A stretch of 32,000 nucleotides of DNA. Source: Eubacterium maltosivorans (GTDB lineage Bacteria; Bacillota; Clostridia; Eubacteriales; Eubacteriaceae). Of this stretch, positions 7,305 to 29,075 are shown in pieces; position 1 is the stretch's first letter; each line of letters begins with the position of its first letter. Location of the stretch: positions 3,366,349 through 3,398,348 of the forward strand of contig NZ_CP029487.1 of assembly GCF_002441855.2 (NCBI RefSeq), written 5' to 3'. The notes beneath the pieces were generated by a model, which ran no database searches, was not told where the DNA came from, and saw nothing but the letters and a program-made list of their open reading frames with translations. Position numbers and translations under genes: made by a program.

Positions 7305-7421
7305 TATATATATACAGCAGATAATCGGCAGGGCGGCGTATCCTGCATCTCAGGTACTCCAAAGAGTGTGTTGGGAGCCATTTCCAACCTCAACTACCTG
7401 CTGGTATAATCTATGTACCCT

Positions 7422-7853
7422 TTATTCTTTTATACTTTCATTATAAGGCTTTTCAAAGGAGGCGTCAAGGTCTAGGGATAAAGAGCAGACAGGTTTAAGT
7501 CGACCGCTGTTTAAATGTTTTTTTAGCTTTCCATCACTGATGGCATACAAAGAAGCAATGAACAGATAATCATTTTTCAGATCAAGTTTAATTGCAACCA
7601 TAATGTTAGCATCATAATGTTTTACAATTTCAATGCTGTTGGGCTCTTTTGGATTTTTACCAATATAATCCGGAAACTCAAGCATTTCAGAAATATGGGG
7701 CAAGTAAGCGAGACAATCAGGATGCCTTTTTTCAATATGAACGCGAAGTCCCTTTGACTGGTAAATCGGCCCGCATGGTAAATTGGACTGTGTGACAAGG
7801 TTAAATTCTGGTAGATATTCACCTACTTTTATCATTTTGTTGAAATCAACCAT
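7422..7853 (-). CDS. PBECR-family (phage-Barnase-EndoU-ColicinE5/D-RelE-like) putative nuclease
   Basis: IYQSKGLRVHIEKRHPDCLAYLPHISEMLEFPDYIGKNPKEPNSIEIVKHYDANIMVAIKLD resembles the PBECR3/4 pattern as I remember it (...HI.KRHP...I..PDYIG.NPKEPNSIE.VK...VAIKLD). The preferred start is the ATG at 7853, with GAGG 6 nt upstream. The track instead starts at the GTG at 7865. Confidence 0.55.
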   Translation of the reverse strand: MVDFNKMIKVGEYLPEFNLVTQSNLPCGPIYQSKGLRVHIEKRHPDCLAYLPHISEMLEFPDYIGKNPKEPNSIEIVKHYDANIMVAIKLDLKNDYLFIASLYAISDGKLKKHLNSGRLKPVCSLSLDLDASFEKPYNESIKE

Positions 7854-8073
7854 ATGCCGCCTCACTTGTTTACAAGAATAAGAACATTATACTAAAAATT
7901 GCATAGAAAAGCAAAAGAAGCAAGCGTACGAATTTGGCGTACAATTCAAGGCTGTATGCAGAAGGAGAGAGAGAAAGTAGCCCAAAAATCAGACATGAAC
8001 AGCTCAATTTTTAATAGCATTTACAGACAAAAACGGGAATACACAATCAGTATTCTCTTTTTTATTACGGCCC

Positions 8074-8104
8074 GCCGCTCAAAAACCATTGAGCGGCTTT
8101 TTTT
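8074..8104 (+). terminator. Strong rho-independent terminator immediately upstream of the parA RBS
   Basis: GCCGCTCAA (8074-8082), loop AAACCA, TTGAGCGGC (8089-8097): a perfect 9-bp stem followed by TTTTTTT (8098-8104). The parA SD AGGAGG begins at 8109. Confidence 0.75.
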
Positions 8105-8122
8105 ATTTAGGAGGTGCCAATT

Positions 8123-8950
8123 ATGGCAAAAACCAAAGTCATCACAATTTCTAATCAAAAAGGTGGTGTCGGCAAGACCAATGTCACGGTGAACCTCGGT
8201 GTGGGTCTGGCAAATGAAGGAAAGAAAGTGCTTCTGGTGGACAGTGATCCACAAGGCGATTTAACCACTTCCCTCGGATGGTATGATCACTATGGACTTG
8301 AAGCGACGTTGACTACCATGATGCAGGGCATTGTCGCTGACCAGCCCATTGACCCCAAGGCGGTGATCCTGCACCACCCGGAAAACGTCGATTTAATCCC
8401 CGCGGATTTAGATCTCGCAGGCATGGAGATGTCACTACTGGTGGCTATGAACCGGGAATCCGTACTGCGCATGTGTCTACAGGACATCAAGAAAGACTAT
8501 GACTATATCCTTATCGACACCATGCCAAGCCTGGGTATCCTGTCGATTAACGCCATGGCTGCGGCGGACAGCATCATCATTCCCGTACAGGCCCAGTATC
8601 TGGCCCTTAATGGGATGACCCAGCTGATCCAATCCATCAACAAGGTTAAGCGGCAGATCAACCCCAATTTAAAAGTTGAAGGTGCACTCATTACCATGGC
8701 CGATATAAACACCAACATGACCAAAGAGGTGGCCGAAGCACTCCATGAGCAGTACGGAAAACAGCTTTATATTTTTCGCAATGCCATTCCACGCGCTACA
8801 AAGGCAGCAGAAACCAGTGCGGCGGCCAAAAGCATTTACACCTACGACAAGGGAACAAAAATCTGTGAAGCCTACAAAGCTTTGACGAAGGAGGTAATTA
8901 ACCATGGCAGTAAACAAAAAGATAAACATGCCGCTGCCCAGTGCCGATGA
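8123..8950 (+). CDS. parA: ParA/Soj-family partition ATPase
   Basis: Deviant Walker A motif KGGVGKT in [26 protein letters not shown] at 8109-8114 lies 8 nt upstream of the ATG at 8123. The track start at 8114 is a GTG inside the SD. Confidence 0.9.
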
Positions 8951-9842
8951 CCTGTTTAAAACCGATGCGGAAAGACAGAATGATGGACTTGAAAAAGTTA
9001 TGGAAATTCCCATTGAGGAAATTTCAAGCTTTCCAGACCATCCCTTTAAGCTCCAGATGGATGAAGCCATGCAGGACATGGTCGAAAGCATCAAAGAATA
9101 CGGCGTACTGTCACCCGCTTTGGTAAGACCAAAAGAAGGCGGGGGATACGAGATGGTATCCGGCCACCGTCGAAAAATGGCTTCTGAGATTGCAGAAAAG
9201 ACGGCGATCCCCTGTATTGTCCGAAACCTGACGGATGATGAAGCCATTATTCTGATGGTGGATTCCAATCTGCAACGGGAAAAAATCATGCCTTCAGAAA
9301 AAGCTTTTGCTTACAAAATGAAACTCGATGCCATGAAAAGACAGGCAGGAAGGCCGAGCAAAAATAATCCTGTGCCAGTGGCACAGGATTTAAAGGGAAA
9401 GACTTCCCGCGAAGTTTTAGGCGAACAGGTGGGGGAGAGTCAGGATCAAATACGGCGTTATATCCGTTTAACCGAACTGGATTCCCCCATTTTGGACATG
9501 GTGGATGAGGGGAGAATCGCATTCCGGCCCGCGGTGGAGCTGTCCTACCTGAAGCCTGCCGAGCAAAAACAGCTTTTAGAGGTGATGGAAAGCGAGGAGT
9601 GTACCCCTTCATTGGCACAGTCCACGAAGCTGAAACAGTTCTCCAAGGAAGGGAAACTCACGAACAACGTCATTTTATCCATCATGAAAGAGGTCAAGCC
9701 CAACCAGAAGGAAACCATCAAAATTCAGAAAGAGAAAATCAGCAAGTATTTCAGGAAAGGAACCACCGACAAAAAAATTGAAGATACCATCATCAAGGCG
9801 TTGGAGATGTATCAGAAACGCCAGAAGCAGATGGAGCGGTAA
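8904..9842 (+). CDS. parB: ParB/Spo0J-family N-terminal domain protein
   Basis: ParB box with arginine patch ([13 protein letters not shown]) and an HTH region. AAGGAGG lies 8 nt upstream of the ATG. The gene overlaps parA by 47 nt. Confidence 0.85.
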
Positions 9843-9851
9843 CAGGATTCA

Positions 9852-9871
9852 GGGCGGCAGAGATGCCGCCC
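9852..9871 (+). other. GC-rich stem-loop after parB (possible attenuator or RNA stabiliser)
   Basis: GGGCGGCA, loop GAGA, TGCCGCCC: a perfect 8-bp stem with no proper U-tract. Confidence 0.3.
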
Positions 9872-9896
9872 ATTTACGTTCAAAGGAGGAACGAAG

Positions 9897-10478
9897 ATGT
9901 TAGAAACAGATTGGATGTACGAAGATTATCAGATCACACAGGCCATTGATATTCAAGGGCGTATGGTTATTTTTGGAGAAAGTCGCTTAGATAATAAGCC
10001 AACAGCGTTCTTGTGCGGCTATTATGAACCTTTGTTATTGGCGGATGCTTATTCGGAAATCCAAATCGGCAGTTATCTGGAAATGATGGAACTGTTCATA
10101 AAGCGGGTACAGTGTCAAATTGATAAAGTGCGGGAGGAACAACAGGAAATGGATGTGCCGTTAGATGCTATTACCCGGGAAATGTGTGTTCCTTATCAGG
10201 AGAATACAGGCATCCGTGGTCAGATGGTTGCCATTGATCCCATGCGGTTTCGGCCAGAAGATCGCATTGGCCCGAAACAAATCGGCTATGTGATAGCGGA
10301 TCAAACACCTTCCAAAAACAGTATGGTGTTCAGACGGCTTTATGATGGCCGGGAGATGTGCTGTTTTTACGGGGACATTCTGGGTGTGATCAAGTCTGAG
10401 TATCAGTCGGATTGGGCCAAAGAAGTGGTCTGTCAACTTGAAAAAAATGATGAAAACCGAAAAGGAGAAACACGCTGA
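9897..10478 (+). CDS. Hypothetical conjugative-element protein (193 aa)
   Basis: AAGGAGG lies upstream. Codon composition matches the neighbours. Its stop overlaps the next start (TGATG). Confidence 0.7.
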   Translation: MLETDWMYEDYQITQAIDIQGRMVIFGESRLDNKPTAFLCGYYEPLLLADAYSEIQIGSYLEMMELFIKRVQCQIDKVREEQQEMDVPLDAITREMCVPYQENTGIRGQMVAIDPMRFRPEDRIGPKQIGYVIADQTPSKNSMVFRRLYDGREMCCFYGDILGVIKSEYQSDWAKEVVCQLEKNDENRKGETR

Positions 10479-10744
10479 TGGAAAAACATGAAAACAAAGG
10501 CTATCAGATCACCGACAGCATCCAAGTCGGGAATACCGCTTTCGTCATCGGACACAGCGAAAGCCTGCCCTATCCCTATGTGGTTTGGAAGAAAACCGAA
10601 GGGCAGGGATACGATTATGGACATTATAAAAACCATCGTCAGGAAGCCGTTGAAGATTTGTGCCGCCGGGCACTCAAAGAATTAAAAATACAAAGAAATA
10701 AAGAAATGCGAAAACCGCGAAAGGAGCAGGCCGAAAATGAATAA
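10478..10744 (+). CDS. Hypothetical protein (88 aa), N-terminal module paralogous to the start of the 9897 gene
   Basis: Translationally coupled start. The YQIT...VIGHSE segment is shared with the preceding protein. Basic C-terminal half. Confidence 0.6.
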   Translation: MEKHENKGYQITDSIQVGNTAFVIGHSESLPYPYVVWKKTEGQGYDYGHYKNHRQEAVEDLCRRALKELKIQRNKEMRKPRKEQAENE

Positions 10745-11024
10745 ATTACCAGAACAGTGCTATAACACCTTACTCTCCACCGGGGAGCTTGTCACCATTA
10801 AGAAAAATGAAAAAGGCTATTTCCCATCTGAGCTTTCCACACCGGATATGTTAACAAACCGTGCCATTGCAGAGCGGGCTAACCGAAAGGCTGGGATCAC
10901 CAAGGCTCAGACCGCTGCCATGGTCGGCGGTTCTTTGTTTGGATGGTCATCACCCGCCGCGAATCCAGATAACTATGATGTCAACGGCAATTTTGTTCGC
11001 GGACGTTTCAAGGATGAGCCGTAA
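10737..11024 (+). CDS. Hypothetical protein (95 aa)
   Basis: AAGGAG lies 10 nt upstream. The gene overlaps the previous stop. The GITKAQTAAMVGGSLFGWSSPAANPDNYD core looks conserved. Confidence 0.6.
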   Translation: MNKLPEQCYNTLLSTGELVTIKKNEKGYFPSELSTPDMLTNRAIAERANRKAGITKAQTAAMVGGSLFGWSSPAANPDNYDVNGNFVRGRFKDEP

Positions 11025-11035
11025 GGAGCAGTGCC

Positions 11036-11299
11036 ATGGCTAAAAATACCAAAGGTTTCAGAGCTTTAACCCGTCTGATTGAAGCGGGCTATAACACCGA
11101 AAAGGCCATTGCGGGCATGACCATGACTGAAATGCTGGCGTTGCCCGGCGTGTCGGTCTCCGAACTTGTCCAGTTCGACGAACTGCAAAAAAGCGTTAAA
11201 GCAGGCAAAGTTGTCACCTATTTAGGCACCACAGAGGAACGAGAAAAGAAAAAAGAGGAAGGAGCAAAAGCAAATGACCAAGAAAATACGGTTTATTGA
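11036..11299 (+). CDS. Hypothetical protein (87 aa), possibly helix-hairpin-helix-like
   Basis: AAGGAG lies 7 nt upstream of the ATG. The segment MTMTEMLALPGVSVSEL is HhH-like. Confidence 0.55.
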   Translation: MAKNTKGFRALTRLIEAGYNTEKAIAGMTMTEMLALPGVSVSELVQFDELQKSVKAGKVVTYLGTTEEREKKKEEGAKANDQENTVY

Positions 11300-11831
11300 T
11301 GCGCGGTATTTTGACCTTTTTTATCTGCCCGACGGCAGCCGGATTATTGAAAAATCCATGGATGGCTCGAAAGAGAAAAAGCGCTGTTACTACATTGATC
11401 CCTACCATGCAAAAATTGGTGAGCGCATTTTCCATATCCATGAATATGCAAAGCAGATGGAAGAAAGTGCGGTTCTCTATGTTCCAGAAAGGCCACAAGC
11501 AGATGACCAGTTAGACTATTACACCATTTATCAGATGCAAAACCGATTAAGGGTGGATTATGCTTTCTGCACTTACGAGGAAGCGAAAGACCGGATTAAT
11601 CCTGAAAATTATCGCCCGGTTTATCAGGCTGTTTTAGCTCAAAACGTAAATCAGGAAGATATTTATTCGATTCACAACCGGGAAAACCGTCCCTTTAAAG
11701 ATAAAATAAGACCTTTATCCTTAGGTGATATTATCCTTTTCCACCGAAAGGGTCATCACATTGCCTATTATGTGGACATGGCCGGGTATCCAGAGATCCC
11801 TGGCTTTTCCTTTAAAATTGAAAACAAATGA
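11274..11831 (+). CDS. YodL-like domain protein
   Basis: AAGGAG lies 9 nt upstream. The C-terminal half (YYTIYQMQ...NYRPVYQAVL...EDIYSIHNRENRPFKDKIRPLSLGDIILFHRKGHHIAYYVDMAGY) matches my recollection of the YodL-like domain found in Firmicutes conjugative elements. Confidence 0.6.
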   Translation: MTKKIRFIDARYFDLFYLPDGSRIIEKSMDGSKEKKRCYYIDPYHAKIGERIFHIHEYAKQMEESAVLYVPERPQADDQLDYYTIYQMQNRLRVDYAFCTYEEAKDRINPENYRPVYQAVLAQNVNQEDIYSIHNRENRPFKDKIRPLSLGDIILFHRKGHHIAYYVDMAGYPEIPGFSFKIENK

Positions 11832-11835
11832 GGTG

Positions 11836-12237
11836 ATGGTATTGCTCAATGCACGCATTACATACGGTGGCAAGCAGCTTTTAACCAAGCTCTGGTACCC
11901 ACACGATACCATCAAATGGGCTTTATACGATATGGGCATCAGAAAGTCCATGGATGAAATTTATCCGGATGATCCGGAAATCAGTATCCAGTACCTGCCC
12001 GACAGTCCAGAAGGACAGCAGCTTTCATCCTTGATTACCTGCCGCCATTCCCTCATGGAAGTCAACACCGCCTGCCGGGCTTACTACTGTACCGGGGACT
12101 ACCGCGTTATGGATCGCATGGATGCGCGGCTTGAAAAGGGCTCTATTAAAACATTGGAGGACTATATTAAAACCGCGCAGCGGATCAAGAGAAAGCTGGA
12201 TAAAGACCCGATCCGGCGGAAAACCGATGCGCGGTAA
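11836..12237 (+). CDS. Hypothetical protein (about 133 aa)
   Basis: The track ORF 11725..12237 overlaps the previous gene by about 100 nt. The in-frame ATG at 11836 (MVLLNARITYGG...) follows that gene's stop. The exact start is uncertain (GTG at 11833 and TTG at 11842 are also possible). Confidence 0.55.
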   Translation: MVLLNARITYGGKQLLTKLWYPHDTIKWALYDMGIRKSMDEIYPDDPEISIQYLPDSPEGQQLSSLITCRHSLMEVNTACRAYYCTGDYRVMDRMDARLEKGSIKTLEDYIKTAQRIKRKLDKDPIRRKTDAR

Positions 12238-12260
12238 AAGAAAAAAGGAGGAAAACCAAC

Positions 12261-13268
12261 ATGTACGAGGGTGTGATTAATGCCTATGTGACGAACTTAG
12301 GCCGCTACAACGAGGGTTATCTGGTGGGAGAGTTCTTAGCTTTACCCGCCACCACTGAGGAAGTACAGGCTATTTTTGAGCGGATCGGCGTAGACGAAAA
12401 GCGATATGAGGAATACTTTATCACCGATTATGAAACAGAGATCAGCGGTCTGGGCGATTGTCTGGGTGAATATGAAAATCTGAATGCCTTGAATTATCTT
12501 GCGTCCTGCCTTGATGAGCTGACCGAGGAAGAAATGAAAAAATATGAAATCGCTGTGGAAGAAGGCGACTACACGTCAAGCATCGTGGATTTAATCAACT
12601 TGACCCAAAATCTGGATTGCTACGACATCGTTCAGGACATCGACAACGACTATGCGCTGGGGGAATACTATATCAACGAGTGCGGTGCATTTTTGGAAGT
12701 ACCGGATGGGCTGAGTAACTATATCGCCTATGACGCATATGGACGGGACGCGCGGATGAATGATTGCGGCAGCTACATCAACGGCTGTTATGTGTGCGAA
12801 ACTGGAGCAGGCTTTTATCCTTTCTTCGATGGTCATGAGATTCCCGAAGAATACCACATCACGTCTTTTCCAGAGCCAAGAGATGTGGATGCCCTGATGG
12901 TACGCATCGGACAGCCTCCTGAAAAAATCCGCATTGAAAATAGTCTGGAAGGCATCGAGAGTGTCTTTGAAGGGACCGTTTGCGCCTATCCCCTGTCGGA
13001 TGAAACCCTCATTGTTACTCAAAAAGAGGATAAACGGATTCCCAACCACGCCCTTTTTGACGCAGCGGAACATGCCAAGATCAGCGTTTGTGGGGATTTT
13101 CTATTGTGCAACTGGGATTTTGAAGCCCTTAAAGTCAAAGACCTCACCCCAAAACAGATTGAAAAATATATGGATCAACTGGAACATCCTGAAAAATACA
13201 ATGGGGATGTGCAGCGAAAGATCGTATTTCCGGAAAAAGAAAAGCATCGGGACACGATGGAACGGTAA
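12261..13268 (+). CDS. ardA: Antirestriction protein ArdA fused to a C-terminal DUF3846-like domain
   Basis: The N-terminus INAYVTNLGRYNEGYLVGEFLALPATTEEVQAIFERIGV is the ArdA signature (compare Tn916 Orf18). The protein is acidic. Residues from about 205 to 335 align with the two downstream DUF3846 proteins. AAGGAGG lies upstream. Confidence 0.85.
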   Translation: MYEGVINAYVTNLGRYNEGYLVGEFLALPATTEEVQAIFERIGVDEKRYEEYFITDYETEISGLGDCLGEYENLNALNYLASCLDELTEEEMKKYEIAVEEGDYTSSIVDLINLTQNLDCYDIVQDIDNDYALGEYYINECGAFLEVPDGLSNYIAYDAYGRDARMNDCGSYINGCYVCETGAGFYPFFDGHEIPEEYHITSFPEPRDVDALMVRIGQPPEKIRIENSLEGIESVFEGTVCAYPLSDETLIVTQKEDKRIPNHALFDAAEHAKISVCGDFLLCNWDFEALKVKDLTPKQIEKYMDQLEHPEKYNGDVQRKIVFPEKEKHRDTMER

Positions 13269-13300
13269 GCAGAATGTCACCTGAAGATTCTGCTTTTTTT
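13269..13300 (+). terminator. Rho-independent terminator after ardA
   Basis: GCAGAAT (13269-13275) pairs with ATTCTGC (13287-13293), followed by TTTTTTT (13294-13300). Confidence 0.65.
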
Positions 13301-13390
13301 ATTTCAGAAGGGAGGTGATTCCCTTGAACTATAATCCATAGAGCTCACGGTCACAAAAGAAATTTTTAAAAAAACGAAGGAGAAAAACAC

Positions 13391-13561
13391 ATGAGTACAG
13401 CCATTAACCTGAATGAATTGATGAAACTTTATGAGGGGGAGGACGTGGAGATCACGTTGATCATCCCCTCGTCACCCCTCATTGTGGATGTGGGAGAGAC
13501 ATCAGAAGCCAGCGAAGGGAAAGGAAACGATCATGAAAAACAATACCACGAATCAAAATGA
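13391..13561 (+). CDS. Small acidic hypothetical protein (56 aa)
   Basis: Below the track cut-off. Translation: MSTAINLNELMKLYEGEDVEITLIIPSSPLIVDVGETSEASEGKGNDHEKQYHESK. AAGGAG lies 8 nt upstream of the ATG. It overlaps the next gene by 29 nt. Confidence 0.4.
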   Translation: MSTAINLNELMKLYEGEDVEITLIIPSSPLIVDVGETSEASEGKGNDHEKQYHESK

Positions 13562-13979
13562 ACTAACGGATAAGAAAGACGAAATCACCATCCTGATGAT
13601 CCGGGCCGGGGAGCGGCCACAGGAAATGACCATTGAGAACACCCTTGAAGCCAAGCAGAAATTGGTGGATGGATACATTGAAATGTATTATCTTCCAACC
13701 GATGACGACGCAGTGATCATCTGTAATGAAGAAGGAAAGATCAACGGTCTGCCCCTGAACCGCGGTATTTTTGATGAAAAAAAGCGGCTTGTTGAGATTA
13801 TTGCAGGCGATTTTTTTCTTTGTAACGCCCCGAGGGACAGCGAGGATTTTACAAGCTTAAGCCCAAAACAAATTGAAAAATTTTCTGAGCAATTCAAATA
13901 TCCTGAACAGTTTATACGCCTTAATCAAGGGATTATCGCTGTCCCGATAAAGGATAAACACAGGGATTATGAGCGGTAA
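13533..13979 (+). CDS. DUF3846 domain protein (paralog 1)
   Basis: Contains DDDAVIICNEEGKINGLPLNRG...IAGDFFLCN...LSPKQIEKF. The preferred start is the ATG at 13533 (MKNNTTNQ). The track starts upstream at 13482. Confidence 0.7.
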   Translation: MKNNTTNQNELTDKKDEITILMIRAGERPQEMTIENTLEAKQKLVDGYIEMYYLPTDDDAVIICNEEGKINGLPLNRGIFDEKKRLVEIIAGDFFLCNAPRDSEDFTSLSPKQIEKFSEQFKYPEQFIRLNQGIIAVPIKDKHRDYER

Positions 13980-13985
13980 CTGAAA

Positions 13986-14393
13986 ATGAAACGTACAATC
14001 AATGTCTTATATATCCGATCCGGGGAGTCCCCGCGGGAAGTTACCATTCCCAATAACCTGAAATCCATGCAAAAACTCGTAGGCGGCAACATTGAAAGGT
14101 ATGAGTTACAAACGGATGATGATGCAGTGATTATCTGCAACGATGAAGGAAAGATAAACGGTCTGCCGATGAACCGTGGCATCTTTATTGATAACAGTGA
14201 ACTTATTGACATCATTGCCGGGGACTTTCTTATCTGCAATGCGCGGGGTGACCGAAAAGGTTTTTCCAGTCTTACCCCCGAACAAATCCAAAAATATGCC
14301 GAAGAATACAAGTTTCCTGAGCGGTTTTGCCGTGTAAACCGAGAGATTGTTGTCGTGCCGTTGATGCCGAAAATCAAATATTATGAGCGGTAA
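13986..14393 (+). CDS. DUF3846 domain protein (paralog 2)
   Basis: Contains DDDAVIICNDEGKINGLPMNRG...IAGDFLICN...LTPEQIQKY. It is clearly paralogous to 13533..13979 at both the protein and the DNA level. Confidence 0.75.
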   Translation: MKRTINVLYIRSGESPREVTIPNNLKSMQKLVGGNIERYELQTDDDAVIICNDEGKINGLPMNRGIFIDNSELIDIIAGDFLICNARGDRKGFSSLTPEQIQKYAEEYKFPERFCRVNREIVVVPLMPKIKYYER

Positions 14394-14531
14394 CTAAATT
14401 GAAAGCAGGGGAGCCTTGCGGCGTGAGACTGTCCCAGCAAGCACTGAAAAAGGATAGCCGCCCTCCAGGCAGCTCACCTTTTTCGCTTGTTGGGGCGTGC
14501 CCCAATCCCCCTTTTATAACGTGGATAAGGA
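14394..14531 (+). promoter_or_regulatory. Putative oriT / relaxosome assembly region
   Basis: A 138-bp intergenic region directly upstream of mobC and the relaxase gene. It contains the palindrome TTGGGGC-GT-GCCCCAA (14490-14505), followed by CCCCCTTTTATAAC. Confidence 0.45.
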
Positions 14532-14540
14532 GTGAAAAAT

Positions 14541-14867
14541 ATGCGAAAGCGCAACGTTGAGATCCTGTTTCGCCTGACAAGGCGGGAAGCACAGGAACTG
14601 GATAAAAAAGTGAAGAAGTCTGGTCTGAGCCGGGAAGCTTTTCTGCGTGCCATGATTGAAGGCTACCAGTTACACGAAAAACCCGGCCCGGCGTTTTACG
14701 AAACCATGCGGCAGATGTCCGCCATCGGAAACAACCTGAACCAGATTGCCGCCAAGGCCAATGCCCTGGGTTTTGTGGATCAGCCGCTTTATGAAAAAGA
14801 AGCCCTGAAATGGCGGAAGTTCCAGACCGAAATCAGAGAAAAATTTCTGCTGCCAGAAAAAGGATGA
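14541..14867 (+). CDS. mobC: MobC-family relaxosome accessory protein
   Basis: RLTRREAQELDKKVKKSGLSREAFLR together with IGNNLNQIAAKAN is the MobC signature. AAGGAG at 14527-14532 lies 8 nt upstream of the ATG at 14541. The track GTG at 14532 lies within the SD. Confidence 0.8.
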   Translation: MRKRNVEILFRLTRREAQELDKKVKKSGLSREAFLRAMIEGYQLHEKPGPAFYETMRQMSAIGNNLNQIAAKANALGFVDQPLYEKEALKWRKFQTEIREKFLLPEKG

Positions 14868-14868
14868 T

Positions 14869-16227
14869 ATGGCCACCACAAAAATTTGGGACATCCGGGG
14901 CCGTCTGGACAGGGTGGTTGATTATGCCAAAAATCCGGATAAGACAAAGAACAAAAATTATGGCGTGGCTGACGTACAGGCCCTGCGGGATGTGATGGAC
15001 TATGTGTCGCAGGACATTAAAACTGAAAGGCAGTTTTATGTCACAGGTTTAAACTGTTCACCCGAAACCGCGAGGGAGGAGATGACCATCACCCAAAAGC
15101 AGTACCGCAAGGAGGGCGGCATCATTGCCTATCACGCCTATCAAAGCTTCAAACCCGGGGAAGTCACCCCGGAGATCGCCCATGAAATCGGCGTAAAACT
15201 GGCAGAGGAATTGTGGGGATCACGGTTTGAGGTGATCGTCGCAACCCACATCGACAAAGCCCATATTCACAATCACATGGTGCTGAACGCTGTCTCCTTT
15301 GCTGATGGGCTGCGCTACTATGACAATAAAGAAACCTATCGGAAAATGCGGGAGGTCTCCGACCGTCTTTGCCTTGAATACAAGCTTTCCGTGATTCAAA
15401 AGACCATGAACAAGTCTATGCAGTACGGTGAGTGGCGGGCAGAGCAGGAAGGAAAACCCACATGGCGGGGCCTGATCTTAAAAGACCTCGATGCAACCAT
15501 TTCCGAATCCGTGACCCTTCGGCAGTTTCTGTATCGTCTGCGGCAGAAGGGATACGCCATCAAGTATGATGCAAAATACTTCACGCTGAAGCCGCCCGGG
15601 AAAGCGCGATATGTGCGCATTGACCGCCAGTATCCCGAATACCGTTTAGACAACATCGAACAGCGGATTTTTAAACAGCAGCAGATCAAGCAGTACCGAC
15701 CCGGGCCAAAGGCTGCAAAGAAAAAAATGCTTTTGCACGGAAGCTTTGAAAAAGCCCGTCATACCAGCGGCCTGCGGGGCCTGTACCTTTACTACTGCTT
15801 TAAGCTGGGCGTGTTTCAAAAGAAAAAAGACCGGGAAGCAGGCGCACTGCCGTTTCTGTACCGGGAGGATATACGGAAGATGGAACAAATCAGTCAGGAA
15901 GCGTGTTTTCTATGCCGCCATCAGATCAACACCATGGATGAACTGGCAGCTCATAAGATAGAAAATGAACAGCAGATAAAAAAACTCTGTACTGAGCGTA
16001 AAAAACTCTGGAACAGAACACAGCGCACACCGGATGAAAAAGAGGTGACTAAAATCAAAGCGGACATTGCCGGGCTGAGCGCGCAGATCAAAGCACTCAG
16101 AAAGGAAGTGAAGTATTGTGACGGCATTGCCGCGCGATCCATGCCGATGAAAGAAAAAATCAAAGCAGTCAAATTAGAAGAAAAAAATAAAGGAAAGGAG
16201 CATACCAAAAATGAATACAAGCGGTGA
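14869..16227 (+). CDS. MobA/VirD2-family conjugative relaxase
   Basis: N-terminal relaxase fold with the histidine triad HIDKAHIHNH. The N-terminus is MATTKIWDIRGRLDRVVDYAKNPDKT. The C-terminal part is coiled-coil. The start is tightly coupled to the mobC stop. Confidence 0.85.
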   Translation: MATTKIWDIRGRLDRVVDYAKNPDKTKNKNYGVADVQALRDVMDYVSQDIKTERQFYVTGLNCSPETAREEMTITQKQYRKEGGIIAYHAYQSFKPGEVTPEIAHEIGVKLAEELWGSRFEVIVATHIDKAHIHNHMVLNAVSFADGLRYYDNKETYRKMREVSDRLCLEYKLSVIQKTMNKSMQYGEWRAEQEGKPTWRGLILKDLDATISESVTLRQFLYRLRQKGYAIKYDAKYFTLKPPGKARYVRIDRQYPEYRLDNIEQRIFKQQQIKQYRPGPKAAKKKMLLHGSFEKARHTSGLRGLYLYYCFKLGVFQKKKDREAGALPFLYREDIRKMEQISQEACFLCRHQINTMDELAAHKIENEQQIKKLCTERKKLWNRTQRTPDEKEVTKIKADIAGLSAQIKALRKEVKYCDGIAARSMPMKEKIKAVKLEEKNKGKEHTKNEYKR

Positions 16228-17104
16228 CGCAGCTGAACAAGTCATCCGACTATCCCTTGAAGGGGCGGATTTTTTGTTGCGGCTGACAGGGACAGGCCTT
16301 AAAAATCTGGCCTTTCTGTTAATCTCAGCTTTAAAGAGTGCTGATGTACACAAAACAAAAGGAAAAACCCGATTAACAGCTATGCTGAAATCCGGGAAAC
16401 CCTTAACCGTTTTTTCGATTAACAATGCTGACCTTGAAGTCTTTGCCAAAGAAGCCAAGCATTACGGGGTGCTTTACTGTGCCCTGGGCAATCCGACAGG
16501 CAGTCCGGATGGTGTGACGGATATTCTGGTGAAGCAGGAGGATGCTGTGCGGATCAACCGGATCGTTGAACGCTTCCAGCTGGCAGCAGTGAATACCGCG
16601 GAAATTAAGAGTGAAATTCTGAATGAACGGGAAGGGCAGACGCAGACTCCTGAAGAAGTACAGGCAGAGGAAGCCCTGTTGAATGATCTTTTTGGTGCAT
16701 CGGATCAGGAATCCAAAGCCGGGGAAGAACAGCTGCTGGATGTCCTTTTAGGCCCCGCAGAGCCAAAGGAGGAAAACGAGCTGCCCCCAAAGGAGGAAAA
16801 CATGGTTTCGGGCAGGGAGGACAAGGAAGTCCTACAGGCGGAGAAACCCTACGCCGAGGACCCGCAGGCCCAGGCACAGGAGAAAAGCCTTCCATCCGGG
16901 AACAGCTTGAAGCCGCCCGCCGCAGAAGAAGGTAAACCTTCCGTCCGGGCAGAACTCAGAGCGATCAAAGCCGAGCAGGAAAAGGCCCGGGCAGAACCCG
17001 AACGCAGCGCACCGGAGCCGCAAAAGGAAACCAAACACCATGGGCCCAAGCGGAAAACCAAAAAAGAGATTCAAAAAAAATCGAAGGGAGATAAAACACG
17101 ATGA
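16211..17104 (+). CDS. PcfB-family (DUF3801) protein with a disordered E/P/K/A-rich C-terminal half
   Basis: NTSGDAAEQVIRLSLEGADFLLRLTGTGLKNLAFLL...KTKGKTRLTAMLKSGKPLTVFSI...AKHYGVLYC matches the PcfB family as I remember it. Confidence 0.7.
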   Translation: MNTSGDAAEQVIRLSLEGADFLLRLTGTGLKNLAFLLISALKSADVHKTKGKTRLTAMLKSGKPLTVFSINNADLEVFAKEAKHYGVLYCALGNPTGSPDGVTDILVKQEDAVRINRIVERFQLAAVNTAEIKSEILNEREGQTQTPEEVQAEEALLNDLFGASDQESKAGEEQLLDVLLGPAEPKEENELPPKEENMVSGREDKEVLQAEKPYAEDPQAQAQEKSLPSGNSLKPPAAEEGKPSVRAELRAIKAEQEKARAEPERSAPEPQKETKHHGPKRKTKKEIQKKSKGDKTR

Positions 17105-17988
17105 GTAACTTATATGACCTGTTTGGTCAGGAAGAACCCGAACAGAAGCCGAGAAACAATCAAAAGTGGCAGGCCGAGCAAAAGGCCAACCGGGAATACT
17201 GCTATACACAAATTGAAAAGGCCCTTGAAACCATTGGGAAAAGTCCCGAGCTATTTCAGGGGTATCTGAACGTTCAGGCCAATTTTGAATACTATACTGC
17301 CCGTAACGCGCTGCTCATACAGGTGCAGCGGGAAACCGCCACCAAAATTGCAGACAGTACGACATGGAAAGAGCAGGGTATCTTTGTGAAACAGTCCGAG
17401 TTCAGAAACCCGATTTTGATTCTGGAACCCGGAAACCCCTACACCCGTGATGATGGAACAACCGGGCAGTCCTTCAAGGCCAAGAAAATGTACGACATCA
17501 CCCAGACCACCTGTCGGGTGCGTTCTCAGAAAACAGGCAAACTGGATGACCGGATGCTGATAAAATCACTCATTTCAAAGGCCCCGGTAAAGATTCTGAC
17601 CGCCGAAGCCGTCAATCATCCGCTGGCCGTGGATTTTGATATGGATAAAGAGTGCGTGGTGGTGGAAAAAGGGCTGAATCCGGATGCCATGTATCAGGGA
17701 ATCGCCGCCGCTTTAGCCAAGTCCGAACTGGCCTTAAACGGATGCGATACCAAAACCCTTGATTTCAAGGCCCAGGCCGCCGCTTACATGATCTGCAGAC
17801 AGGCAGGCGTTTCAACCGCATGCTTTGACTTTTCAAAGCTGCCGGATTTTCTGACCAGTGCAGAACCGCAGCAGGTGGGCGCAGAGCTGACCGCCATCAA
17901 GGATGCCATGGCCGAGGTGTCCATGCGGGTAAAGTACAATTTACAGCAGATGGTACAGCAAAAGAGCCGGGCAGACCCGGCACGCTGA
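17101..17988 (+). CDS. ArdC-N-like (ssDNA-binding, antirestriction-type) domain protein, putative
   Basis: YYTARNALLIQVQRETATKIADSTTWKEQGIFVKQSEFRNPILIL resembles the ArdC N-terminal pattern (YS..N..L...Q........T..QW...G..V.KGEK). The start overlaps the pcfB stop (ATGA). Confidence 0.45.
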   Translation: MSNLYDLFGQEEPEQKPRNNQKWQAEQKANREYCYTQIEKALETIGKSPELFQGYLNVQANFEYYTARNALLIQVQRETATKIADSTTWKEQGIFVKQSEFRNPILILEPGNPYTRDDGTTGQSFKAKKMYDITQTTCRVRSQKTGKLDDRMLIKSLISKAPVKILTAEAVNHPLAVDFDMDKECVVVEKGLNPDAMYQGIAAALAKSELALNGCDTKTLDFKAQAAAYMICRQAGVSTACFDFSKLPDFLTSAEPQQVGAELTAIKDAMAEVSMRVKYNLQQMVQQKSRADPAR

Positions 17989-17996
17989 GGTAGATC

Positions 17997-18191
17997 ATGA
18001 AAGAAGTCAAAAGAATTTTAACCCTTGACCATGTGGAGTACGGCGTTCTGATCAATGCCCTCAATCAAATGCGAAACGGCCTGATAAGGCAGAAACGGTC
18101 AACAGATGTCGTGGACGACCTCTTACTGAAAACCATCGACGCACCTACAGAAAAGACCGGGAAAAGGAAGGGACGCGACAGTGCAAGATAA
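17997..18191 (+). CDS. Small hypothetical protein (64 aa) preceding the coupling protein
   Basis: Compact ORF whose end overlaps the virD4 GTG start. Basic C-terminal tail. Confidence 0.55.
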   Translation: MKEVKRILTLDHVEYGVLINALNQMRNGLIRQKRSTDVVDDLLLKTIDAPTEKTGKRKGRDSAR

Positions 18192-20025
18192 TTTCAGTAA
18201 AAACATGGTGCTGTACATCGCCCTCCTTGTGCCGGTGATCGGACTGGCCCTGCGCATTGCCCCTTTCATCGACGAGGGACTTTATGCCTTTATCCTTAAG
18301 TTCCCCGAAGCAATGGAGCATCCCTTTAAAATCACATGGTGTGAGGGCAGCTTAAAATCCATCCTGATTCTGATGATTTTATATGTCATGGGAATCGGGA
18401 TTTTTTATGCCACAAAAAAGAACTACCGCCGGGGTGAGGAACACGGAAGCGCGAAGTGGGGGGATGCCCAAAGCGTCAACCGAAAATACCGGGAGAAACA
18501 CTTTGAAGATAACAAGCTGCTGACCCAGAACGTGCGCATGGGTCTGGACGGCCATCGGCACCGGAGAAACCTAAACGTGTTAATCTGCGGGGGGAGCGGG
18601 GCCGGGAAAACCCGATTCTATGCAAAGCCCAATGTCATGCAGGCCAATACCAGTATGGTGATCCTTGATCCCAAGGGTGAGATCCTCCGCGATACCGGAC
18701 AGATGCTCAGAGAAAAGGGGTATGAAGTCCGCATTTTAGATTTAATCAACATGGAGAAGTCACACTGCTATAACCCCTTTGTCTATCTCAAAACCGACAA
18801 CGATGTGCAGCGGCTTGTGACAAACCTCTTTAAGGCTACAACCATAAAAGGCGCGCAGTCAAGCGATCCCTTCTGGGATACAGCGGCCAGTATGTTACTG
18901 CTGTCCTTAGTCTTTTTTCTGAAATACGAAGCCCCGCCCGAGGAACAGAATTTTCCCATGGTCATGGAGCTGCTCAGAAATGGGGACATCCCCGAAGATG
19001 TGGACGGCTATGTGTCGCCCCTTGATGAGCTGATGGATCGTCTGGAAGCTCGGGAGCCGGATCACATTGCTCTGAAGTATTACCGCAATTATCGGAGTGG
19101 TGCCGCCAAGACCGTAAAATCCATCCAGATCACCTTAGCGGCAAGACTGGAAAAGTTCAACCTTGAAAGTCTCTCAGCACTCACAGTGACCGATGAACTG
19201 GACTTAGCCAGCATGGGAGAAAAGAAGGTGGCTTTGTTTGCGTTAATCCCAGACAACGACACCTCTTTCAACTTCCTCATCAGTATTTTATACACGCAGC
19301 TCTTTCAGCAATTGTTTTACACCGCTGACCGAAAATATGGGGGGCTGTTACCCGTGCACGTTCACTTTATCATGGATGAGTTCGCCAACGTTTCACTGCC
19401 CGATGATTTTGATAAAATTCTCAGTGTTATGCGTTCCCGGGGCGTTTCTGTATCCATTATTTTACAGAACATGGCGCAGCTCAAAGCCCTGTTTGAAAAG
19501 CAATGGGAAAGTATCGCCGGGAATTGCGACGCGTTTTTATATCTCGGCGGCAATGAGCAGGCAACACACAAATATGTCAGTGAACTGCTCGGGAAACAAA
19601 CCATTGACACCAACACCTACGGAAAAAGCTCAGGTAAGAGCGGGAATTATTCAACAAATTACCAAAACAGCGGCCGGGAGCTGATGACACCGGATGAAGT
19701 GCGGATGCTCGACAACCGTTATGCTCTGCTCTTTATCCGCGGAGAACGGCCCATTAAAGATGAAAAATACAACCTGTTAAAACACCCCAATATCCATCTG
19801 ACCACCGACGGCGGGATGCCGCCATATGAACACGGGCGTGTGGATCACGCTGTTGCAAGCATGAGCCTTGTGCCTTATTCGCCGGATATTGTGATTGAGG
19901 AAATGGAAATATCTGAAGAAACAACCTGTGAACTCTGGTCGGAGGAAGATTTAGAAGCTTATTTTGAAAAACAAAAGGAGATTTACCTAAATGAACCAAA
20001 CAACGAAACGAAAAAAGAAGCATAA
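18181..20025 (+). CDS. virD4: VirD4/TraG-family type IV coupling protein
   Basis: Two N-terminal TM helices, Walker A GGSGAGKT and Walker B FIMDEFAN. The alternative ATG start is at 18206. Confidence 0.9.
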   Translation: MQDNFSKNMVLYIALLVPVIGLALRIAPFIDEGLYAFILKFPEAMEHPFKITWCEGSLKSILILMILYVMGIGIFYATKKNYRRGEEHGSAKWGDAQSVNRKYREKHFEDNKLLTQNVRMGLDGHRHRRNLNVLICGGSGAGKTRFYAKPNVMQANTSMVILDPKGEILRDTGQMLREKGYEVRILDLINMEKSHCYNPFVYLKTDNDVQRLVTNLFKATTIKGAQSSDPFWDTAASMLLLSLVFFLKYEAPPEEQNFPMVMELLRNGDIPEDVDGYVSPLDELMDRLEAREPDHIALKYYRNYRSGAAKTVKSIQITLAARLEKFNLESLSALTVTDELDLASMGEKKVALFALIPDNDTSFNFLISILYTQLFQQLFYTADRKYGGLLPVHVHFIMDEFANVSLPDDFDKILSVMRSRGVSVSIILQNMAQLKALFEKQWESIAGNCDAFLYLGGNEQATHKYVSELLGKQTIDTNTYGKSSGKSGNYSTNYQNSGRELMTPDEVRMLDNRYALLFIRGERPIKDEKYNLLKHPNIHLTTDGGMPPYEHGRVDHAVASMSLVPYSPDIVIEEMEISEETTCELWSEEDLEAYFEKQKEIYLNEPNNETKKEA

Positions 20026-20344
20026 AGCCCCGACACCCCGTCTGCCTGTGAACACCAAAATGCGCCGCCGCTTTTCGGTTTATATGGCGATGGTACTGTG
20101 TGTTTTGTGTACCACAACCGTGCGCGCTGCCGATGACCCTATTGCCGTGGTCAACAACCTGTCCACCTTTATCTTTGGCCTTGTCCGGGCGGTCGGTATG
20201 ATCCTCATCGGCTATGGCATTGTGCAGATTGGTTTATCCCTTAAGTCCCATGATCCAAGTCAGAGGGCCAACGGCATCATGACCGTGGCCGGAGGGATCG
20301 TGGTCACCTTTGCCAAGGAAATTTTGAACACCATTGCGGGATAA
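19991..20344 (+). CDS. Maff2-family small membrane protein (possible pilin-like T4SS component)
   Basis: The signal-like segment and NNLSTFIFGLVRAVGMILIGYGIVQIGLSLKSHDPSQRANG match the Maff2 family as I remember it. AAGGAG lies 9 nt upstream of the ATG. Confidence 0.7.
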   Translation: MNQTTKRKKKHKAPTPRLPVNTKMRRRFSVYMAMVLCVLCTTTVRAADDPIAVVNNLSTFIFGLVRAVGMILIGYGIVQIGLSLKSHDPSQRANGIMTVAGGIVVTFAKEILNTIAG

Positions 20345-20365
20345 TCCGGTATGCATACAAAGAAA

Positions 20366-20397
20366 AAAGGGCAGGCCAAAACGCTGGCCCGCCCTTT
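20366..20397 (+). other. Strong stem-loop between the Maff2 and VirB6-like genes (partial terminator or attenuator)
   Basis: AAAGGGCAGGCCA (20366-20378), loop AAACGC, TGGCCCGCCCTTT (20385-20397): a 13-bp stem with one mismatch. Only a short T-tract follows. Confidence 0.5.
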
Positions 20398-20411
20398 GAA
20401 AGGAGGATTCA

Positions 20412-21251
20412 ATGGAAAGTGATAACTGGATTGTACAAAATCTGCAAAACGCACTGGACACATGGAATGGAAAGCTGTCGGAAATCTGGCAGCTGCTCAC
20501 CCAGTCGCCCCAGACCTTTAAGGGCGGTGGCATCTGGGAGGTGATTGTCAACATCAACGGCACCTTGCAGGCCATCGGCTATGCCCTGTTGGTGTTGTTT
20601 TTTCTGGTAGGCATGGTCAAGACCTGCGGCTCACTGGCAGAAGTCAAGAAGCCGGAACACGCCCTGAAACTCTTTGTGCGCTTTGCCATTGCCAAGGGAG
20701 TCATCACCTATGGTCTGGAACTTATGATTGCCCTGTTTACCATTGTGCAGGGGATCGTGTCAAAAATCATGGTGACGGCGGGGCTGGGGGGTGCGACCCA
20801 AACCGTGCTGCCGCCAGAGATTGTGGAAGCAGTGGAGAACTGTGCATTTCTTGAAAGCATCCCTTTGTGGGCGGTGACTCTCATCGGAGGACTGTTCATC
20901 ACCGTATTGTCTTTTGTAATGATCATGAGCGTATATGGACGTTTTTTTAAGCTCTTTCTCTATACTGCCATTGCCCCGGTGCCCTTGTCCACCTTTGCGG
21001 GTGAACCCAGCCAGAGCATTGGCAAAAGCTTTCTGAAAAGCTATGCGGGTGTCTGTCTGGAGGGGGCAATCATTGTACTGGCCTGTGTGATTTTTTCACT
21101 GTTTGCGGCATCCCCGCCACAGGTCAACCCGGACGCTTCGGCGGTCACCATGGTTTGGGCCTATATCGGGGAACTGGTTTTTAACATGCTGGTATTGGTG
21201 GGAACCATCAAGCTTGCAGATCACTGTGTGAAGGAGATGATGGGCCTGTAG
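20412..21251 (+). CDS. VirB6/TrbL-like polytopic T4SS membrane protein
   Basis: AAGGAGG lies upstream. The protein has six or more hydrophobic helices and occupies the usual position between Maff2 and PrgI/VirB4. Confidence 0.7.
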   Translation: MESDNWIVQNLQNALDTWNGKLSEIWQLLTQSPQTFKGGGIWEVIVNINGTLQAIGYALLVLFFLVGMVKTCGSLAEVKKPEHALKLFVRFAIAKGVITYGLELMIALFTIVQGIVSKIMVTAGLGGATQTVLPPEIVEAVENCAFLESIPLWAVTLIGGLFITVLSFVMIMSVYGRFFKLFLYTAIAPVPLSTFAGEPSQSIGKSFLKSYAGVCLEGAIIVLACVIFSLFAASPPQVNPDASAVTMVWAYIGELVFNMLVLVGTIKLADHCVKEMMGL

Positions 21252-21260
21252 AAATAAAAA

Positions 21261-21279
21261 AGGACGTGGTTAACGTCCT
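21261..21279 (-). terminator. Terminator of the inverted membrane-protein gene
   Basis: AGGACGT, loop GGTTA, ACGTCCT (21261-21279). On the minus strand it is followed by TTTTTATTT (rc of 21252-21260). The hairpin overlaps the TAG stop of the minus-strand gene. Confidence 0.6.
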
Positions 21280-21658
21280 AGAATACAGGCTTATCGTCTT
21301 TGTTATAGCGCATGGTTCCTTCGCTGTCAATATAGCAGTCACGGGTAGAGATACCCCGAGCTCTTGCCGTCCGGGCCTGCCAGGCAATATCTTCTTTCAT
21401 GGTTTTATAGTATTGCCGCTCGTCCCAGTAATCCTTAAAAGAGCGTATCCAAGAGATCAGGGAAAAACCCAAAAGAATAAAGAGAATGGCAAAAGCCAGT
21501 TTTTCGTGGGCAGCCGCCCATGGATTGAGAAAAGTGCTGACCAGCAGGAAATAGACAACGGGCAATGTCAGACGAAGCTTTCCAGCAAGCTTCAACACAA
21601 ACGACAAAACAATGAGCACAATGGTGATGATCAATGAAATAAATGCGACATATACCAT
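21278..21658 (-). CDS. Membrane protein of unknown function (3 TM helices plus a basic cytoplasmic tail), inverted within the T4SS operon
   Basis: AGGAGG lies 6 nt upstream of the ATG on the minus strand. The hydrophobic helices are clean (MVYVAFISLIITIVLIVLSFVL...) and the gene has its own terminator. The overlapping plus-strand ORF 21266..21637 lacks these features. Confidence 0.7.
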   Translation of the reverse strand: MVYVAFISLIITIVLIVLSFVLKLAGKLRLTLPVVYFLLVSTFLNPWAAAHEKLAFAILFILLGFSLISWIRSFKDYWDERQYYKTMKEDIAWQARTARARGISTRDCYIDSEGTMRYNKDDKPVF

Positions 21659-21748
21659 GGGGGCGCCTCCTATGTATTGATTTTTATAGTTTTAGTATAG
21701 CAGGCTTCGCTCAAAAAGCAAGCCTGTAAAAGCAAAAGGAGATTTATT

Positions 21749-24446: not shown

Positions 24447-24473
24447 TCCTCCCGGTGTTTTCGATGAAGGGAG

Positions 24474-27166: not shown

Positions 27167-27355
27167 ATGAATATCCATAGAAAAAAGCCCCTTTCACTGC
27201 CGAGTTGCAGGGCAGCGAAGGTTGTCTTCACTTTTGGATATGGCATGCTCTTTTATATTGCTGGAGATACAACGAACTACTCATGTCTTTGTTTGATCCC
27301 TTGTATTTTTATGTTAATTGAAGCAGTATATAAAGACAAAATTAAACATGTTTGA
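27167..27355 (+). CDS. Possible small membrane protein (62 aa)
   Basis: Two hydrophobic segments. A weak hairpin plus TTTTTTT follows directly after the stop. No convincing SD. Confidence 0.3.
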   Translation: MNIHRKKPLSLPSCRAAKVVFTFGYGMLFYIAGDTTNYSCLCLIPCIFMLIEAVYKDKIKHV

Positions 27356-28977: not shown

Positions 28978-29075
28978 GATTAAATTCCTTTCAATTTTAC
29001 TTTAATTATACTTCTTATACTTTAGGTTGTCATCAAAAAACGCTAAGCTTTATGCTTACCTGTCCAATATAGTCG

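Follow-up and report, generated by a model that had tools for sequence, protein, structure and literature searches.

Gene content of the island

The subject of this work is an island of ten open reading frames (ORFs) in a 32,000-nucleotide stretch of the Eubacterium maltosivorans genome (contig NZ_CP029487.1, positions 3,366,349 to 3,398,348). The whole stretch is termed the window and all coordinates refer to it. The island occupies 9897-14393 on the plus strand, between parB and a homologue of a conjugative origin of transfer (oriT), within what, on its gene content, is an integrative and conjugative element (ICE) of the Tn1549/CTn4 type with a MOBP7 relaxase. ORF1 to ORF10 start at 9897, 10478, 10737, 11036, 11274, 11836, 12261, 13391, 13533 and 13986, and the spacing between successive neighbours is -1, -8, +11, -26, +4, +23, +122, -29 and +6 nucleotides (nt), negative values being overlaps. 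A preliminary description of this DNA had reported ten co-directional, packed and partly overlapping ORFs with these starts, and all were found, at spacings from -29 to +122 nt. It had also described the island as transcribed towards a putative oriT with mobC and the relaxase gene transcribed away from it, and the geometry is as claimed. Nearly all genes of the element lie on the plus strand, so the orientation of the island is by itself uninformative about the template of the transferred strand (T-strand).

An AGGAG/GGAGG-type Shine-Dalgarno site precedes nine of the ten starts. The closest public relatives, an E. limosum metagenome-assembled genome (MAG; contig L001) and E. callanderi FD (L002), are collinear with window positions 8032-26233 at approximately 90% DNA identity, and all ten frames are intact in both. 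The ratio of non-synonymous to synonymous substitution (dN/dS) is 0.08-0.45 for the eight scorable ORFs (ORF4 was left out owing to an indel, ORF5 as too diverged for dS), a range that resembles those of ParA, MobC, the relaxase and T4CP, the type IV coupling protein. The block was found again in four more contigs (L005-L008). Because the frames are intact, dN/dS is low and the block recurs in relatives, the ten ORFs are genes and not chance reading frames. As judged from these substitution ratios, they are under purifying selection in related Eubacterium elements. A megablast search of plasmids with positions 8100-16300 gave no matches, and no island protein matched NCBIfam. The preliminary description had counted five genes with no recognizable domain; by Pfam there are six (ORF1, 2, 3, 4, 6 and 8).

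The partition genes parA (8114-8950) and parB (8904-9842), both on the plus strand, lie directly upstream (Pfam AAA_31/CbiA, 1e-57; ParB_N, 2e-18, plus HTH_ParB). The gap between parB and ORF1 contains an 8-bp GC hairpin, GGGCGGCAGAGATGCCGCCC (9852-9871, plus strand), identified in a scan for terminator-like structures and very stable (DNA fold z = -7.1). It has no T-run, and an attenuator, a parS-like site or a processing site are all possible.

ORF1 (9897-10478) encodes an acidic protein of 193 amino acids (aa) with a pI of 4.6 and a dN/dS of 0.12. It is lineage-restricted, with no match in Pfam, NCBIfam or PHROG; homologues form eight clusters among 5.8 billion proteins, and those named by organism are all from Eubacterium. 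An E. maltosivorans protein has 100% identity to ORF1. The AlphaFold2 model of ORF1 (pLDDT 58) was set aside for fold searching. ORF2 (10478-10744, 88 aa, dN/dS 0.17-0.37) likewise has no Pfam, NCBIfam or PHROG match, and gives weak phmmer matches to ORFs close to the relaxases of other members of the oriT family described below. An N-terminal likeness between ORF1 and ORF2, suspected by eye to indicate paralogy, is unsupported (BLASTP E = 6). ORF3 (10737-11024, 95 aa, dN/dS 0.08) belongs to a phage family of unknown function, phrog_10280 (PHROG 2.6e-24). ORF4 (11036-11299, 87 aa) has no Pfam, NCBIfam or PHROG match and is 93% identical in the relatives.

ORF5 (11274-11831, 185 aa) is YodL-like (PF14191, 1.7e-16), scoring 61.5 bits against a gathering cut-off of 24. 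It exists as two allele groups, the window with L006 and L001 with L005, which are approximately 50% identical to each other while the flanking genes are 85-97% identical; this split points to cassette-like replacement or diversifying selection. ORF6 (11836-12237, 133 aa, dN/dS 0.18-0.31) is basic, has no Pfam or NCBIfam domain and is a near-orphan. Only five matches occur among 1.84 billion representatives, two being its own cluster and one a TPR-repeat artefact. The match to a SIR2-STAND-TPR protein (P0251) covers ten TPR repeats and was judged an artefact of repeats or composition.

ORF7 (12261-13268, 335 aa) combines ArdA (residues 8-178; Pfam 5e-39) with DUF3846 (residues 211-307; 4e-9) and ends in ...HRDTMER. 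The ArdA part, the N-terminal 200 residues, covers positions 1-154 of the 155 in PF07275 and aligns over the whole of Tn916 Orf18 (PDB code 2W82, residues 5-153) with an E-value of 3e-21. In common with Tn916 ArdA the protein is strongly acidic (pI 4.25 with 70 Asp and Glu residues for the whole chain); it differs in that DUF3846 and a basic ...ER tail are fused to the C-terminus. The N-terminal part of ORF7 is a bona fide ArdA, and on that basis it is predicted to inhibit type I restriction-modification enzymes. The preliminary identification of ArdA was thus sound, but the protein is an ArdA-DUF3846 fusion and not a stand-alone ArdA. Among the best 120 of 887 homologues the fusion occurs only in those at least 88% identical to ORF7, and those less than 60% identical are approximately 235 aa long with no DUF3846 match. 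The ardA gene of Tn916 itself lies downstream of a MOBT relaxase gene rather than upstream of a MOBP7 oriT.

An intrinsic-terminator-like hairpin followed by seven T residues (13269-13300, plus strand, identified by sequence and folding) lies 3' of ORF7 and suggests that the island comprises two transcription units. The motif TTGAACTATAAT (13324-13335, plus strand) is a possible start of the second, which would contain ORF8 to ORF10. ORF8 (13391-13561) encodes an acidic protein of 56 aa, overlaps ORF9 by 29 nt, has a dN/dS of 0.21-0.24 and is annotated as a 53-aa gene in relatives. ORF9 (13533-13979, 148 aa) and ORF10 (13986-14393, 135 aa), the last gene before oriT, are 57% identical DUF3846 proteins (Pfam 2.7e-33 and 1.3e-31) with tails ...KHRDYER and ...KIKYYER. 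Against a PF12957 cut-off of 27.5 bits, ORF9 scores 114.7, ORF10 109.3 and the C-terminus of ORF7 37.1. The AlphaFold2 model of ORF9 (pLDDT 86.9) is beta-rich with a disordered tail.

Profile searches of the kind that the preliminary description had proposed recovered ArdA, YodL-like, DUF3846 and phrog_10280 proteins. Comparison of the ORF9 model with PDB folds gave no convincing neighbour (best TM 0.3), and the ORF1 model was unusable. A sequence search of the PDB with ORF1, 3, 4, 5, 6 and 9, and with the 295-aa product O295 encoded downstream of the relaxase gene, gave nothing credible.

The oriT module

The 147-bp gap between ORF10 and mobC is 96% conserved in the relatives, more than the flanking genes. 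The stop of the island (14393) lies on one side of it and the mobC start, probably the ATG at 14541 rather than the GTG at 14532, on the other. The core (14436-14520) consists of AGCAAGCACTG (14436-14446), a nested hairpin (14446-14484), GCTTGTT (14485-14491), the hairpin TTGGGGCGTGCCCCAA (14490-14505) and a TCCCCC flank, and folds as a long hairpin (z values of -3.6 and -2.9). The gap between orf30 and orf29 of Tn1549, in pMG2200, shares AGCAAGCA ... GCTTGTTGGGG-loop-CCCCAA-NCCCC; this gap is the region in which oriT was reportedly mapped (Tsvetkova 2010). Tn1549 and a Cohnella plasmid with a relaxase 47% identical both have AGCAAGCA, the nested hairpins and GCTTGTT-GGGG-loop-CCCC-AA-NCCCC, and in Cohnella the hairpin is altered with compensation to TTAGGGG/CCCCTAA. 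By these sequence matches the 147-bp gap is a homologue of the Tn1549 oriT region.

A scan with the pattern GCTTGTTGGGGN{3,5}CCCCAA returned 44 loci classed as viral and at least 120 metagenome loci. A GCAAGC arm, which the pattern does not impose, is present in 152 of the 168 pattern sites, leading to 136 distinct oriTs. The putative oriT of the preliminary description is thus homologous to the Tn1549 region and to 136 other distinct sites, with GCAAGCA ... GCTTGTT-GGGG/CCCC as the common hairpin core.

Several observations on this family may be noted. A full conjugative oriT module is carried by 39 of the 44 IMG/VR contigs (L013-L056), many with relaxase, serine recombinase or two-component genes; these are probably ICEs or integrative and mobilizable elements binned as viruses. 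The Tn1549 region of pMG2200 (L011) has two copies of the core pattern, at approximately 4116 and 5661 and thus some 1.5 kb apart, one beside the vanB operon and the other before mobC. In L006, an E. callanderi-type contig, an insertion sequence with a DDE_Tnp_1 transposase (14699-16174 of that contig) sits inside the TTGGGG...CCCCAA hairpin (window position approximately 14499-14504), has duplicated about 6 bp of target and probably inactivates or alters oriT. Two candidate nick sites (nic) fall in the 14447-14476 spacer, which is unconserved in Tn1549 and Cohnella, and were treated as chance matches: an RSF1010-like sequence on the plus strand (CGCCCTCC, an 8-nt match) and, on the minus strand, an RP4-like ATCCT.

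Direction of transfer

Does the island enter the recipient first or last? The proposed nic lies on the minus strand at 14438/14437 (5'-...CAGTGCTTG|CT-3', the bar marking the cut), 44 nt from the ORF10 stop. Read on that strand, the hairpin is followed by NNT-GCTTGC, and in 72 of the 112 sites with a detectable hairpin, out of the 136 distinct family sites, 3 nt separate the end of the stem from GCTTGC, so that cleavage of GCTTG|C would fall approximately 8 nt from the stem. This is the hairpin-nic spacing of RP4 and R64, and the proposed core resembles the MOBP nic consensus YATCCTG|Y. An inverted repeat, about 8 nt and CTGCTYG|C occur once in a pCF10-like oriT (GCAACATGCTAGCATGTTGC-TCTGCTCG|C) and also in pKKS49, a staphylococcal mobilizable plasmid typed as MOBP, and the identical core TCTGCTCG|C is found on the minus strand of L180. 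The oriT arms covary (GCGAGC/CTCGTT in L180, CCAGC/GCTGTT in L185), and in close relatives the left arm is constant where the right arm mutates. Whatever its orientation, the relaxase gene is found to the right of the module in 62 of the 65 loci of the family. In the working usage of the field, a leading region is the flank of oriT that faces away from the relaxase and accessory genes (PMC11541004), and the island adjoins oriT opposite mobC and the relaxase gene. On the strength of the hairpin spacing, the shared CTGCTYG|C core, the covarying arms and the relaxase on the opposite side, we consider it likely that the minus strand is nicked at 14438/14437 and that the island leads.

As regards relaxase orientation, in 57 of the 65 loci the gene converges on oriT, its 3' end some 70-110 nt from the hairpin, and in five it diverges, as here. 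The relaxase gene of Tn1549 also diverges from oriT.

A number of findings weigh against a leading island and fit the opposite polarity, with the plus strand nicked 3' of the TTGGGG...CCCCAA hairpin (approximately 14506-14515). The mobC, relaxase and type IV secretion system (T4SS) genes would then enter first, the island would be the trailing end with its genes acting in the donor or after establishment, and operon history would account for its proximity to oriT. Conservation extends to both flanks of the 14490-14505 hairpin, with the plus-strand flank NCCC at 98-99% (132 sites), and a plus-strand nic would place all the inverted repeats 5' of nic. The pCF10-like and staphylococcal plasmids carry the core upstream of mobC on the strand that is sense for the mob genes, so the polarity of MOBP7 systems relative to these genes is not fixed. 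Genes for polyvalent proteins with ArdA and YodL (giant ones in at least two loci, L026 and L102), or YodL (Tn1549), lie on the relaxase side of oriT, as does the ArdC-N-like O295 in the present element. MOBT ICEs transfer the relaxase end first. No enrichment on the leading side was seen for MOBT, MOBP2 or MOBC (PMC11541004). Set against this, the plus-strand flank is poorly conserved past NCCC(C), the CTGCTYG|C core some 8 nt after a hairpin occurs on the minus strand only, and it would be atypical for ArdA DNA to arrive last. We regard a trailing island as rather unlikely, if still to be taken seriously.

Folding of the intergenic regions revealed no Frpo-like single-strand promoter, which is also unfavourable to a leading island; the minus strand at 13262-13395 folds like its shuffles (z = -1.2) and the only other structures are short hairpins, at 9852-9871 and 8074-8097. 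Promoters of the Frpo/ssi type are not universal among leading-region islands. The ArdC-like pcfD gene upstream of the pCF10 oriT was considered as support for the proposed polarity and then dropped: the putative pCF10 nic core is on the mob sense strand, and therefore pcfD would trail.

DUF3846 genes and turnover of the island

A gene carrying DUF3846 lies upstream of NikA-like mobC, relaxase and DUF3801 genes, on the same strand, in all seven families compared (six from independently chosen DUF3846 proteins plus that of the window). Most are separated from mobC by a few hundred bases at most; L187 and L188 have between one and a few genes in the gap, and L183/L184 have an additional copy upstream. 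In five of six loci the DUF3846 gene overlaps the primase stop by 4 nt or directly follows it. Nearby regions in the relatives encode DUF3848, Fic, RadC, pairs of Pol-beta nucleotidyltransferases (NTases), and AAA_14/DUF4143 or a 2617-aa SNF2/Eco57I-like protein.

The preliminary description held that DUF3846 and YodL are known only as modules of polyvalent proteins. For DUF3846 this could not be confirmed. The domain is mostly found alone or in two-domain proteins, with YodL, DUF4314, DpnD-PcfM and DUF3848 as fusion partners and ArdA here; it is frequent in phages, many of which encode solo proteins that clearly match those of the island. The name is absent from Iyer 2017 (PMC5512222) and occurs in a single paper of the literature searched. 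Nor does the statement hold for YodL, whose chromosomal prototype is linked to MreB (PMC5512222).

The number of stand-alone DUF3846 genes varies, from one in L005 (12844-13290) to two in the window (13533-14393) and three in L001 (3684-5024). The middle copy of L001 is a chimera with the body of ORF10 and the tail of ORF9, the result either of unequal crossing-over or of a MAG assembly artefact. The YodL alleles, the variable DUF3846 copy number and the orphans ORF1 and ORF6 may be read as signs of arms-race-like evolution. In some Tn1549-like sites (L026, 83-6700, and L102) a polyvalent protein of 1415-2186 aa, with ArdA, YodL and O295-like domains, is encoded directly after oriT, in the usual place of mobC.

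Proposed role of the island

Because DUF3846 genes are consistently upstream of mobC and the relaxase gene, we interpret the island, with moderate confidence, as an enlarged, lineage-specific form of an accessory module that occurs upstream of oriT in many Tn1549/CTn4-type (MOBP7) ICEs of Clostridia. The island would enter the recipient first and bring ArdA anti-restriction with it. The relaxase would nick the minus strand at TGCTTG|C (14438/14437), and this strand, the template of all island genes, would leave 5' to 3' leftwards. ORF10, ORF9, ORF8 and the ArdA-DUF3846 gene would enter first, and the mobC, relaxase and T4SS genes last. In R64 the order is nic, repeats, nikA, nikB, and the proposed nic gives the same layout here. 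ArdA, expressed in or delivered to the recipient, would mimic DNA and block type I restriction-modification enzymes. The YodL-like protein, the DUF3846 proteins, the five orphans and ORF3 (phrog_10280) are presumed to be establishment or counter-defence factors, and an anti-defence role for the nine products other than ArdA is a conjecture. The preliminary description had allowed only ArdA a known anti-defence function, and indeed no other known anti-defence family was detected; that profile and fold searches tied none of the remaining products to a known anti-defence protein is a point against so wide a reading of the island.

If the island side is the leading end, DUF3846 becomes a widespread, unstudied candidate entry factor, and new counter-defence activities might be sought in ORF1 and ORF6 as candidates. 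It would also follow that the oriT core, with one 17-base pattern and more than 130 distinct sites, offers a practical means of telling the orientation of such elements in metagenomes. The constant position of DUF3846 and the ...ER tail described next are worth experiments.

A shared C-terminal tail

Of the 30 proteins that the element encodes within the window, twelve have a C-terminal Arg preceded by a tail rich in Lys, Arg, Glu and Asp. They are the primase (gene end 2336), ParA (8950), ParB (9842), ORF1 (10478), ORF6 (12237), ORF7 (13268), ORF9 (13979), ORF10 (14393), the relaxase (16227), PcfB (17104), O295 (17988) and o64 (18191). The tail, common to the relaxase and to accessory proteins that are soluble, comprises 10-12 residues, basic at approximately -5 to -10 and acidic at -2 or -3, with a terminal Arg, typically ...ER-COOH. 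Among the 30 proteins checked it is absent from membrane and T4SS structural proteins, pilins and sortase.

The tail is preserved in distant relatives. Of the 65 oriT-family relaxases 55 have it, the rate in 924 background ORFs being 14.5% (binomial 3e-36). So do 89 of 105 stand-alone ArdA homologues (85%, 74 of them with ER as the last two residues) and 98 of 115 DUF3846 homologues (85%, 86 with ER). How far away the next gene lies makes no difference to its presence.

Only the relaxase is certain to be a substrate of the T4SS. The T4SS of pED208 translocates ParA, ParB, SSB, PsiB and PsiA (PMC8406263), relaxases of the PcfG/LtrB type engage the T4CP with their C-terminal portion (PMC7947834) and Agrobacterium substrates have a positively charged C-terminal signal (cited in PMC8406263). 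No description of the ...ER tail was found in the literature searched. On this pattern the tail may be a T4SS substrate signal, in which case the proteins carried by a family of Gram-positive T4SSs would be predictable from sequence alone. A further step, which we put forward tentatively and think unlikely, is that the island proteins act mainly as injected proteins and not through early transcription. Anti-restriction and establishment factors would then be delivered along with the DNA, the tail would be read by the coupling protein, and DUF3846, usually C-terminal and joined to interchangeable N-terminal modules (ArdA, YodL, DUF4314, DpnD-PcfM or DUF3848), would be an adaptor that presents it.

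The last alternative, that the genes other than ardA serve the parAB module as accessories in maintenance, replication or regulation (partition, priming or cell shape of the excised ICE) with no effect on defence, is improbable: the island does directly follow parA-parB, the DUF3846 gene of relatives overlaps the primase stop, and YodL has a genetic link to MreB and a suggested role in anchoring and not in counter-restriction (PMC5512222), but near-orphans, allele replacement and copy-number change suit conflict genes better, DUF3846 and phrog_10280 are frequent in phages, which are without partition modules, and DUF3846 is here fused to ArdA.

Comparison with known systems

Leading-region anti-defence islands have been defined mainly on Proteobacterial plasmids. 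Tn1549-type ICEs, which carry vanB, rank among the conjugative elements that are most abundant in gut Firmicutes. The arrangement described here is of an already known kind, a leading-region-like island, and the present case is a further example. The islands surveyed in PMC11541004, and the ardA-psiB-ssb regions of ColIb-P9 and F, are likewise runs of co-oriented small genes beside oriT and opposite the relaxase gene. They also combine ardA with many uncharacterized families, and their genes lie on the strand templated by the presumed T-strand, a likeness that holds here only if the minus strand is transferred. The present island differs in that its host is a Gram-positive anaerobe, in lying on a chromosomal ICE with a MOBP7 relaxase and a proposed polarity, and in having no Frpo/ssi-like hairpin promoter, ssb, psiB or methyltransferase gene. 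The DUF3846, ORF1 and ORF6 families are absent from the tables of PMC11541004, and YodL appears there only in an eight-member cluster (Samuel 2024). The absence of DUF3846 and the rarity of YodL count against the interpretation that we favour.

The likeness to Tn1549 and to C. difficile CTn4-type elements extends over the oriT core, MobC/NikA-like protein, PF03432 relaxase, PcfB (DUF3801), VirD4, VirB4 and backbone order. The difference lies on the island's side of oriT, where Tn1549 has only a helix-turn-helix gene and the vanB cargo and closer relatives have DUF3848, primase and X-DUF3846 genes. In the window lineage the primase gene is 12 kb away, separated by genes for pilins and sortase, by parAB and by seven additional small genes.

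The domain set (ArdA, YodL, ArdC-N-like, primase, RadC and Pol-beta NTase) is also that of polyvalent proteins, for whose domains a role at entry into the recipient has been proposed (PMC5512222). Here the domains are split over small genes, with giant versions across oriT in L026, L102 and Tn1549.

The surrounding element

From the left, the gene order is DUF3991/Toprim primase (1353), two SpaA-type pilins, sortase, a variable slot, parA, parB and the island. Then follow a NikA/MobC-like ribbon-helix-helix protein (14541-14867, plus strand; Pfam NikA-like 2e-17, MobC 3e-7), the MOBP7-type relaxase (14869-16227, plus strand; PF03432, 1e-41), DUF3801/PcfB, a 295-aa ORF, a 64-aa ORF and the T4CP VirD4 (18181-20025), and after these VirB2-like, TrbL-like (a family assigned through orthologues in relatives), PrgI and VirB4 proteins and a lysozyme/CHAP hydrolase. 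The VirB4-like ATPase is slightly under threshold, with an AAA_10 score of 26.9 against a cut-off of 27.5. ICEs of the Tn1549 family are recognized by a PF03432 relaxase with MobC upstream, VirD4 (PF02534/PF12696) and a VirB4-like ATPase (PMC12084326), and the element has all of these. No integrase or recombinase gene is present among the window genes. The Cohnella relative carries annotations with 'CD1115' and 'CD1110 family' names.

O295 (295 aa, 17101-17988), after DUF3801, has no Pfam match and resembles domains of the giant polyvalent proteins of L102 and Tn1549. A positional relative of O295 has a weak ArdC-N match, and the protein is likely to be a single-stranded DNA-binding ArdC-N-like protein.

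At 26500-32000 and 1-1300 the GC content falls from approximately 50% to approximately 35%, and the collinearity with L002 stops at 26233. These low-GC flanks are cargo or the element boundary. The right part of the window encodes a double GntR-type regulator, a response-regulator-HD-GGDEF protein and an Hpt protein.

The slot before parA is occupied by a PBECR3, DUF4238 or unknown gene depending on the relative, and here by a PBECR3 nuclease gene on the minus strand. Just 3' of it is a skipping-rope RNA motif (RF02924, 75.6 bits), and together the two (7320-7865, minus strand) may constitute an RNA-protein toxin or defence cassette.

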